DNA of 64,000 bases from Basidiobolus ranarum (lineage: Eukaryota), in the NCBI GenBank assembly GCA_040143965.1, contig JASJQH010006879.1, positions 1 to 64,000 of the forward strand. The letters are read 5' to 3'. Position numbers: made by a program. How positions within the stretch are numbered: the first letter of the stretch is position 1; each line of letters begins with the position of its first letter. Positions 59,101 through 62,100 of this stretch are shown here, piece after piece.

Positions 59101-62100
59101 CATGAAGAGTTCCAGCCATATTAGCTATGGGCCGGACGAACTGGACGAATCGTGAGTTGGGGTTCTGAGTATAAGTTTTGACTGTATTGAGCCCATCGTG
59201 TACTATGGGAATTTGGCCAATCCGAGACATCACTTGAGAATCGGACGAGGGTGGAAGAGTCAGATTGGCAGATTCATCAAGTTTATGCTGAACTTTAGAT
59301 TTCTTGATGGTTCTGGTCTTTCGGGAGGTTCCACTTTGACTGTTATTGATTGTATTCATGATTGTTGAGATAACTTGTGTTGGAACCTTTGCTTATATAT
59401 GGTAGCTGTCCTAGCTCAATCATACTTAGAGACGTCACCTGTATGGCATAATCACCTCTGGGCACCGCAGTATCGCTAGAGATGATCGTGACTAGACGAG
59501 TAATGCAAAGTGAAGGGAGCAGAGAGACCATGATTCAACAAATATGGAGCAGAGGCTGATTGAGCAAATATGATGTTTGTCTTTGCGTCGCCAAAGCGCC
59601 CTCGATACAAAGCACCCTCAATAAAAACTGAACAGGTAATTCAATATAAGCTTATAAATTCTGATCCACAAATTCGGTCAGAGGCTATATCGGCATGAAA
59701 TTAGCATTATTTTGGGGGCTAGGGTTAGGGTGAATAAATTTGTAAATTAACTCAGGTTATACAAAAAATGCTGGTTCTAACCCATTTATTAGGTCAAGTC
59801 AAGCACTGCATAGATGAGTGATTGTTACAAATGTTAGTGGATCTATAGTACACAGTACGGGAGTAAAGATAACAATACAAAATAAATGAAAAGGGTAAAT
59901 TAAAGGGAGAGAAATTACATCAGATGTTCTATTTTCCAATATTTGATGGTTCTTCTCAAGTCGACATATTGAGGCCCTTCAATAGATTCTAAATTTTCAA
60001 GGGTTTAGAACAAAGCATGGTTTAAAATGAAATTAGAGATATTGTACCTTCATTTAGCGCCGGTCCACCACCGTAGGCCTGTAAGAATTGTTTCCATGCC
60101 TCTTGAGAGATCATGAAGAAGTCTTCCCATAATACCAAGTCAGGATCAAACCCGCCTTGTGCCGTACACAGTCTACTGTTGGTAATGGGGCCTGGTGCTG
60201 GGTTATTTCCAAGTACAAACCCCTGCCATTCAGACATCCAACTCTGCTCGATAAAGTGACCTATCTCAAATCCTTCATACATAGAGATATTCCGCTCCTT
60301 ACGTCTACGTACGATCTCTTCTGAATTGTACAAACTGGGAACGTTGGTTGCCATCAGTGTCATAATTTCATTAGCTCTATGTGTTTCTATATCGGAGCAA
60401 TTGGTGCCTATCCATCTGTTGCAATGATAGCACCACAACTCCATCGTATTTAGCTTAAGACTAATAGAGTGGCCAGTCGATTTGAAATGGTCGTAGGCAT
60501 GAGCACCTCTCCAGCGTCCACATCCTGTAAATAAGAGGTGGTAAGGTTTTGATACATTTTCAGAAATAGACTGAGTGAAGTTTACCTAAGAATTGACAAT
60601 TGTCGTTTGCACATAGCCATAAATCTGGCACCCCTTCCGTACATTCATCAGAGGAACAGGAAAGTTGTGAATATATATCTACCAGAGATACATACTGCAA
60701 GATTTTCTTCTCCAAGCACTTTCGGTTGAACAGGCTCAAATGTGTACAAATATCGTTAAGCTCAGTAACAAACAATTCTTTCCAAGTCATCTGAGGAAGT
60801 TTGAAGTTTATATTTTTTTGCAGGAAACACAAGCGGAACCAGATAGAATCCTCGGTAGACACTTGATATAAGTTTTTACATACTAATGTGCAATTGAGTA
60901 GATCAGAAAGAGTAAGGTTAGACAATATGTTGACCAGAACCTCATATGGAAGACTGAGCAAAGGGAAAGAACTCATGTTGCTCAAACGCATAACCATCTT
61001 GTTTAGTCAAAGAAATAAGAAGGTTATGGTTGGTGAAAGAATTAACAAGGTACGAACAAGCACAAGTCCCTAGCTCAACAAATGAAGAGAACGTCTTGTA
61101 GTTCCCCCAATGGTTTCAATTTCTATAAAAAGCACAGATGTATATTGAGCATTTCCCTTTTCTAGTGAATTTTATATATATAGCAAGTACATAGCGTACA
61201 GTCAACTTAATCACTACCAACATCTTCAACAATCAACTCATTATCCCCAAAACACATAAAATACACTTTTAAAAGCTTGGTTCCGTGGCCAATGAATGAT
61301 CTCCAGAATCAAGGTCATAGAATTAATGACCTCCTTGGTGTAGCAATAGTACGAAATAGGCAACACGCATATTAAGAATCAGGAGGGAATTCCCATGTTA
61401 GGGATAAGATGTAGGTTGTGTAGTGATGGATAGATACAAACTAGTTGTATGGGGTATCTCGATTAAGAAATCACCTCAAGCACACTCTCAGTATGAGCAG
61501 GCGTTCATGTTAAAAATCAAATGAGTTTATTGTGCTTGCTAGATGCTCTATTTATTCAAGTCGACCAGGCTACAGTATAATAAATACAATGCAATGGTTA
61601 TGAAAGTATTAATTTTTCTTCGATAAGACATCTTGGACTGCCTTCAAAACTTCGGGATGAATAGAGGCAATAGAAGCAACAACTCCTTTGTTGGCTTTCA
61701 AAGTTCTTCCAATGGAGAAGTCAAGAGGCTTCCCAGTAATGTCTGTTACTTCACCACCTGCTTCCTTCACTAACAAATCGCCTGAAGCATGATCCCAAAT
61801 TTTTTCTTCATAATCAGCACGGGTGGGAAGTCTAAGATAAATATCAGCATCACCACGGGAGATAGAGCAATACTTGCATTGACTATCCATACGAACAGGT
61901 GACCTGGTGATATTAAGCAGTTTAGCTATTTGAGCGGCATCGCTGTGAGATGAATGCTCAGCTTCCACAGATTCACAGAATGATGACTCGGAAGTAGAGC
62001 TCACTGCACTCATCTTGATAGGTTTCAAATCGTTGCTTTCGAATGATCTCTATAAATGTTCGGATTCAGTATGTCAAACTCAAGAAGTAGATTATATTGC

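Follow-up and report, generated by a model that had tools for sequence, protein, structure and literature searches.

An F-box protein family with ZnF-UBP and DUSP domains: a candidate SCF receptor for C-terminal Gly-Gly ends in Basidiobolus ranarum

Introduction

What might a protein do that joins an F-box to two accessory domains of a deubiquitinase but carries no deubiquitinase catalytic domain? The question is raised by a gene on the minus strand (60997..59915) of a 64,000-nucleotide stretch of Basidiobolus ranarum DNA (assembly GCA_040143965.1, contig JASJQH010006879.1, positions 1 to 64,000; the window hereafter). Its predicted product of 320 residues, read from the genomic sequence as three exons, contains an F-box, a ZnF-UBP zinc finger and a DUSP domain, in that order. 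Proteins of this layout can already be found in public databases, where they make up a conserved family, as yet unstudied. For the B. ranarum member we favour, with no better than even confidence, a role as the substrate receptor of an SCF (Skp1-Cul1-F-box) ubiquitin ligase that would recognise free C-terminal Gly-Gly ends, the DUSP serving as a further module for binding or as a scaffold.

The gene and its domains

The spliced translation is 100% identical to K7432_000230, a hypothetical protein of B. ranarum referred to here as P0004. Gene and domains are laid out as follows.

59915..60997, minus strand: coding region, with the ATG at 60997 and the stop codon TAA at 59917-59915; its translation is P0004
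60586..60997, minus strand: exon 1, 412 nt; residues 1-137 and the first base of codon 138; encodes the F-box, a linker and the N-terminal half of the ZnF-UBP
60525..60585, minus strand: intron 1, 61 nt, phase 1, GT..AG with the donor GT at 60585-60584; interrupts the ZnF-UBP just ahead of Cys-Gly-Arg
60048..60524, minus strand: exon 2, 477 nt; residues 138-296; encodes the C-terminal half of the ZnF-UBP, a helical linker and the larger part of the DUSP
59989..60047, minus strand: intron 2, 59 nt, phase 1, GT..AG
59915..59988, minus strand: exon 3, 74 nt; encodes the C-terminal helix (residues 297-320) and ends with the stop codon
60824..60958, minus strand: F-box, residues 14-58, with a Leu-Pro start at 15-16; from Pfam and PDB sequence matches
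60406..60748, minus strand: ZnF-UBP, residues 84-177, across intron 1; from Pfam, PDB sequence matches, alignment columns and Foldseek
60259..60405, minus strand: two-helix linker, residues 178-226, at the position where USP20/33 have their catalytic domain
59987..60258, minus strand: DUSP, Pfam residues 227-297, across intron 2; from Pfam, Foldseek and BLASTP to both DUSPs of USP20

Several features bear on the exon structure. Retention of intron 1 leads into a stop codon (open reading frame 60560-61006), and the Cys-Gly-Arg motif begins immediately past the junction of exons 1 and 2. At both exon junctions, between residues 137 and 138 and between residues 296 and 297, P0004 shows no gap or insertion relative to 37 homologues in a 38-sequence alignment. 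The orthologue in B. meristosporus likewise has 320 residues, with 76% identity to P0004. We conclude that the three-exon gene is real, with its exon joining predicted from splice sites and alignment.

Domains were called with Pfam on full-length P0004 and judged against the curated gathering cut-offs. The F-box-like profile PF12937 matched residues 14-58 (E 1.1e-13, 51.1 bits against a cut-off of 24.3) and the F-box profile PF00646 also matched (E 1.5e-10, 41.0 bits, cut-off 20.5), the F-box matches spanning residues 13-58. The zf-UBP profile PF02148 matched residues 118-176 (E 8.2e-13, 48.8 bits, cut-off 22.7), and the DUSP profile PF06337 residues 227-297 (E 5.9e-16, 59.1 bits, cut-off 29.3). 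The scores of all three domains are far beyond chance. Among proteins of solved structure, the F-box is matched best by those of FBXO3 (residues 8-88, 4.7e-06) and SKP2 (5.8e-05), both from solved SCF complexes; the alignment does not extend past the F-box and a short helix that follows it, and the substrate-binding parts of FBXO3 and SKP2 are unrelated to P0004. Trp53 of the F-box is kept in at least 90% of the 38 family sequences, and the DUSP displays the motifs Pro-Gly-Pro-Ile-Thr-Asn and Tyr-Gly-Gly-Gly-Pro.

Neither P0004 nor P0005 gave a match to a USP catalytic domain (PF00443 or PF13423) at E<=0.1, nor was one found in the neighbouring reading frames when those of the window were scanned with Pfam, and the stretch from the finger to the DUSP is just 49 residues long. 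We rejected the possibilities that a catalytic exon had been missed or that the gene is fused to a neighbour, given the lack of a UCH (ubiquitin carboxyl-terminal hydrolase) match and the presence of other genes close by on both sides.

The AlphaFold2 model, computed from the 38-sequence alignment, is a single compact body with a mean predicted local distance difference test score (pLDDT) of 94.1 and a predicted template modelling score (pTM) of 0.87, and has a helix at residues 302-319. Compared with the PDB by Foldseek, it gave 16 matches at E<=0.001. The middle part of the model matched the ZnF-UBPs of USP49, USP20, USP33, HDAC6 and USP16 with probability 1.00, the HDAC6 matches including chains from a ubiquitin complex (3phd), while the C-terminal part matched the DUSP of USP11, USP15 and USP4; the N-terminal part matched FBXO3 in a solved SCF complex (9kbd_C) at rank 49 with E 6.1e-03. 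By sequence, the closest PDB entries to the finger are USP33 (2uzg, 6.1e-11) and USP20 (6kcz, 1.3e-09), followed at lower scores by USP49 (2.4e-07), USP16 (1.3e-05) and HDAC6 (1.6e-05).

P0004 thus shares with USP20 (VDU2) and USP33 (VDU1) the type of ZnF-UBP, the type of DUSP and their N-to-C order, but differs from them in having no USP catalytic domain, one DUSP rather than two, and an additional F-box at the N-terminus. A preliminary description of the locus, made from the nucleotide sequence, had anticipated much of this: a protein of about 320 residues from three exons at 59915..60997, now confirmed with exact coordinates and as identical to a database protein; the order F-box, ZnF-UBP, DUSP, for which all three Pfam profiles exceed their cut-offs; the absence of a deubiquitinase catalytic domain, for which no UCH/USP match was found in the protein or beside the gene; and an origin of the modules in USP20/33-type accessory domains, which agrees with the nearest PDB and BLASTP matches of finger and DUSP. 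Its further statement that the pocket-type residues LWLC, CGR and WCY appear retained also holds, as W127, R141 and Y170 match the Trp-Arg-Tyr (W-R-Y) motif considered below.

The pocket of the zinc finger

The LWLC, CGR and WCY motifs lie at residues 126-129, 139-141 and 168-170 of P0004. All 12 zinc-ligand positions are occupied (C84, H86, C114, C119, C129, C134, C139, H146, H150, H156, C169 and C172), the ligands being assigned by alignment position rather than from a solved structure. The codons of the three W-R-Y residues are:

60617..60619, minus strand: Trp127, the W of the W-R-Y ubiquitin-tail motif
60514..60516, minus strand: Arg141, aligned with the Arg of Cys-Gly-Arg in USP16 and with a Glu of USP20/33
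60427..60429, minus strand: Tyr170, the Y of W-R-Y, aligned with Tyr117 of USP16

Eight of 14 human ZnF-UBPs bind the free Gly-Gly end of ubiquitin, and the ubiquitin-binding members are defined by a key arginine together with up to five aromatic residues (PMC13493902). An older description names the W-R-Y motif, W209, R221 and Y261 in USP5, which ZnF-UBPs that bind ubiquitin conserve and in which non-binders have substitutions (PMC3988567). P0004 has aromatic residues at positions 127, 142 (W), 168 (W), 170 and 175 (W). In HMMER alignments to PDB sequences its R141 and Y170 pair without gaps with Arg84 and Tyr117 of USP16 and also with USP49, to which the stretch from Arg141 to residue 177 aligns ungapped. 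The fingers of USP5, HDAC6, USP16 and USP3 share both the W-R-Y motif and the aromatic pocket positions with P0004, although their overall similarity to it is lower than that of USP20/33, and they belong to hydrolases or a deacetylase rather than to ligase adaptors.

The fingers of human USP20 and USP33, in contrast, do not bind ubiquitin (PMC13493902); the USP20/33 finger binds internal [KR]xxL[NED] motifs by means of Glu55 and Asp59 (PMC13376213). At the positions of USP20 Glu55 and Asp59, P0004 has Arg141 and Ala145, so that the acidic pair is absent and the pocket resembles that of the ubiquitin-tail binders instead. The finger is thus, as judged from alignment, tail-binder-like in its pocket while USP20/33-like in its ancestry. 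It probably reads Gly-Gly ends. Among 25 motif-matched USP20/33-type sequences from other lineages, Arg stands at this position in 7 and Glu in 10, so that the Arg-type pocket may be the older, ancestral state.

A family of F-box/ZnF-UBP/DUSP proteins

Word-indexed protein searches recovered only P0004 and the B. meristosporus orthologue, and six proteins when a profile was used; the family becomes visible only by exhaustive HMMER search. Run against 1.84 billion representative sequences, that search returned 882 matches at E<=0.001, of which 136 reached <=1e-10 and 23 reached <=1e-30, many of them of about 300-400 residues and aligned end to end. A Pfam scan of 64 matches (E<=1e-3) found all three domains in 23, F-box and DUSP only in 8, and F-box and zf-UBP only in 5. 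Among 58 further matches scanned (E<=1e-5), one had all three domains, three had F-box and zf-UBP only, and 40 had UCH and DUSP, the USP20/33 type.

Taxonomic naming rests on 30 clusters that were looked up. Named members include a second B. ranarum paralogue; the chytrids Rhizophlyctis, Borealophlyctis, Chytriomyces, Polyrhizophydium and Obelidium; Gonapodya and Thamnocephalis, with Zoopagomycota represented; and, within Mucoromycota, Umbelopsis, Fennellomyces, Parasitella, Dichotomocladium, Hesseltinella, Radiomyces, Halteromyces and others. Outside the fungi we found the amoebozoan Copromyxa and the rhizarian Paulinella. The preliminary description had called the architecture unfamiliar from characterised proteins, and indeed no member is characterised; the protein is not a singleton, however, as 23 of the 64 scanned matches share its domain order. 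The full-text literature searched, which leaves most subscription journals outside its coverage, held no paper on the combination of F-box, ZnF-UBP and DUSP.

All named members are uncharacterised, being either "hypothetical" or automatically named USP20/USP33. Thus P0006, P0007, P0009 and P0176 (324-409 residues) bear the automatic NCBI names 'ubiquitin carboxyl-terminal hydrolase 33' or '20', yet no catalytic domain was found in P0006, P0007 and P0009, the three of these that were Pfam-scanned. The names 'USP33' and 'USP20' are misleading because the homologues are without a hydrolase domain, and they are likely an annotation error spread through similarity of the accessory domains. Databases therefore list as "ubiquitin carboxyl-terminal hydrolase 20/33" proteins that carry no hydrolase domain, a point of practical concern for annotation.

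These same automatic names on close homologues are what might be expected if P0004 were a gene-model artefact, or the functionless remnant of a USP20/33 gene whose catalytic exons had been missed or recently deleted. We regard this as very improbable. The roughly 49 residues from finger to DUSP contain no UCH match and the flanking genes are only ~0.5-0.6 kb away, the reading frame is intact and the zinc ligands are conserved. The orthologue is equally 320 residues long, and the architecture recurs in 23 of 64 representatives across fungi, Amoebozoa and Rhizaria. Moreover, the homologue of Copromyxa protea originates from a transcriptome assembly, and many environmental homologues lie on contigs of ~1 kb that the open reading frame almost fills.

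Other non-hydrolase combinations were seen among the matches. P0054 joins two DUSP domains to a RING finger, P0051 a TatD DNase to zf-UBP and DUSP, and P0151 two zf-UBP domains to SIR2; P0062, P0114 and P0116 have F-box and zf-UBP without DUSP, and in P0021 the DUSP precedes the zf-UBP.

Conservation of the pocket and of the linker

The family alignment comprises P0004 and 37 homologues (n=38), from which a maximum-likelihood tree was built, with a midpoint root used for drawing only. C84, H86, C169 and C172 are invariant (38/38). Of the 38 sequences, 22 have the whole W-R-Y motif (W occurs in 25, R in 25 and Y in 26). The tree splits into 25 and 13 rows with support of 90/88, and all 22 complete motifs fall inside the 25 rows, which are the non-Mucoromycota sequences; in the Mucoromycota-type clade of 13, W-R-Y and part of the zinc ligands are lost while F-box and DUSP are kept. 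By alignment, then, W-R-Y is maintained outside Mucoromycota, where the finger is intact.

In the linker (residues 178-226), E184 is the sole invariant non-ligand residue of the family, and R210, R211 and E214 (Arg-Arg-x-x-Glu) occur in at least 90% of sequences. Both features are retained even in the Mucoromycota members that have no pocket. That the family survives without the pocket motif argues that the DUSP and the conserved linker have a function of their own.

This distribution bears on a second reading, in which P0004 is an SCF receptor for internal short linear motifs of the kind recognised by USP20/33 ([KR]xxL[NED] and [FW]x[IL]), with Trp-Arg-Tyr serving a different peptide. Finger and DUSP are most like those of USP20/33, the type to which 40 of the 58 further scanned matches belong with their UCH and DUSP domains; both USP20/33 domains bind peptides, and the site for the motif coincides in part with that for the ubiquitin tail (PMC13376213). 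Mucoromycota members that have a DUSP but no pocket also point to DUSP-based recognition. Against this, the acidic pair is replaced by Arg141/Ala145, with Arg at the first position in 25 of 38 members, and the exact W-R-Y signature of tail binders has been kept under selection outside Mucoromycota. We consider recognition of internal motifs rather unlikely, and less probable than recognition of Gly-Gly ends.

The family also offers a view of its origin. Finger and DUSP both align best with USP20/33-type enzymes, and the linker aligns weakly with the segment directly after the USP core of USP20-type proteins. Loss of the catalytic core and gain of an F-box would fit this pattern, and a USP20/33-type deubiquitinase looks like the source of the cassette.

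Proposed function

SCF substrate receptors are typically built with an N-terminal F-box followed by binding modules, and most F-box proteins that bear a C-terminal binding module are receptors. Because P0004 has this F-box-first layout, we read it as such a receptor. The preliminary description had suggested an SCF receptor for unanchored ubiquitin chains or diglycine C-termini, an interpretation that the present analysis supports in part. The F-box of P0004 would dock onto Skp1, and the three-zinc ZnF-UBP with its intact Trp-Arg-Tyr pocket would capture a free C-terminal Gly-Gly tail. Unanchored ubiquitin, single or in chains, is one candidate ligand; ubiquitin-like proteins and further proteins with Gly-Gly ends are others. 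The single DUSP, held rigidly to the finger by the conserved two-helix linker, would provide a second peptide-binding or scaffold surface, and the captured protein would then be ubiquitinated. Skp1 binding, Gly-Gly binding and ligase function are thus what we infer from the domains and residues present.

Parts of this scheme have counterparts in known systems. The second DUSP of USP20/33 binds [FW]x[IL] peptides (PMC13376213), and the finger of USP16 also binds a histone H4 peptide (PMC13493902). BRAP2 (IMP) is an E3 ligase whose ZnF-UBP binds the ubiquitin C-terminus (PMC13493902), and as a ubiquitin-ligase component with a tail-binding finger it offers the closest parallel to the recognition of free ubiquitin tails by a ligase. 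However, BRAP2 is a single-chain RING ligase without a DUSP, not a cullin F-box adaptor, and we saw no homology beyond the finger. No RING family was matched in P0004 by Pfam, so that P0004 is not a ligase of the BRAP2 type. With CRL2-KLHDC2, SCF-Das1 and SCF-FBXO31, P0004 would share only the proposed logic, that of a cullin-RING receptor reading a C-terminal end; these receptors use kelch or other domains and no ZnF-UBP, and are related to P0004 neither in sequence nor in fold. KLHDC2 prefers Gly-Gly ends. That P0004 might target C-degrons is, by this analogy, speculation.

Several observations weigh against the proposal that the family reads Gly-Gly ends. The motif is lost in 13 of the 38 aligned members that still have F-box and DUSP; the family must therefore do more than read Gly-Gly ends, and its core role may not need Gly-Gly binding. 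The finger of P0004 is nearest overall to those of USP33 and USP20, which do not bind ubiquitin, whereas the binders score lower. Pocket residues alone are insufficient, as Sad1 carries the Arg and does not bind ubiquitin (PMC3988567), and USP49, with conserved residues, gave opposite binding results in two studies (PMC13493902 is one source).

Some F-box proteins act outside SCF, and P0004 could have a non-degradative role, either as a sensor or buffer of unconjugated ubiquitin, bound to Skp1 or free, or as an F-box protein apart from SCF. It could tune SCF activity, for example, or capture released ubiquitin in the way that deubiquitinase ZnF-UBPs relieve product inhibition. ZnF-UBPs serve to capture reaction products, and USP enzymes are activated by one added in trans (PMC13493902). 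The protein is also small (320 residues) and compact (pTM 0.87). Against this, the canonical F-box scores well and matches those seen in solved SCF complexes, and F-box proteins that carry such modules C-terminally are mostly receptors. We judge a sensor or buffer improbable.

Returning to a receptor for Gly-Gly ends, the widest interpretation is that the family represents an ancient SCF ligase of early-diverging fungi, amoebozoans and rhizarians, reading free ubiquitin-type Gly-Gly C-termini via its ZnF-UBP and targeting unanchored ubiquitin or chains, processed ubiquitin-like proteins, or proteins with Gly-Gly ends, histone H4 for example. Dikarya and animals would have lost this ligase, and in Mucoromycota it would have been remodelled, its pocket having decayed. 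We offer this tentatively and on balance find it doubtful. If true, it would be an equivalent, built on a ZnF-UBP, of the Gly-Gly C-degron pathway of animals, and a candidate for handling Gly-Gly-ended proteins or unanchored chains in lineages without the animal Gly-Gly degron receptors. F-box and ZnF-UBP are each well known, but the literature searched contained no description of a cullin-ligase receptor built on a ZnF-UBP. Should the finger bind Gly-Gly tails, recognition of free ubiquitin ends, so far a property of hydrolases, HDAC6 and BRAP2, would be tied directly to conjugation.

The locus and other features of the window

The F-box gene is flanked, on its own strand, by an inositol-monophosphatase-family gene (61609-62408) and by perilipin-family genes, each ~0.5-0.6 kb off. 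Three perilipin-family genes stand in tandem directly downstream (minus strand, 56211-59392), with the following matches to Pfam PF03036:

56211-56846, minus strand: perilipin-family open reading frame, 5.7e-10
57572-58180, minus strand: perilipin-family open reading frame, 5.4e-12
58892-59392, minus strand: perilipin-family open reading frame, 2e-06

An exon of a UQ_con (ubiquitin-conjugating-enzyme) gene lies at 55284-55715 on the minus strand, ~4 kb downstream of the F-box gene. Neither Skp1 nor ubiquitin was found in the Pfam scan of the 54 open reading frames of at least 100 residues in the window.

Farther away, at 10800-21000, the window contains a tandem direct duplication of ~5.3 kb, in which five probe segments of 293-300 nt recur at a spacing of 5263-5316 nt with 95-97% identity; the paired open reading frames of both copies gave no Pfam match at E<=1e-4. 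An ornithine decarboxylase antizyme domain (PF02100, 3.8e-14) is encoded by an open reading frame at 45195-45794 on the plus strand, within the region 44714-45794. Antizyme genes usually require a +1 ribosomal frameshift, and neighbouring open reading frames in other frames are present here at 44714-45016 and 45017-45328.

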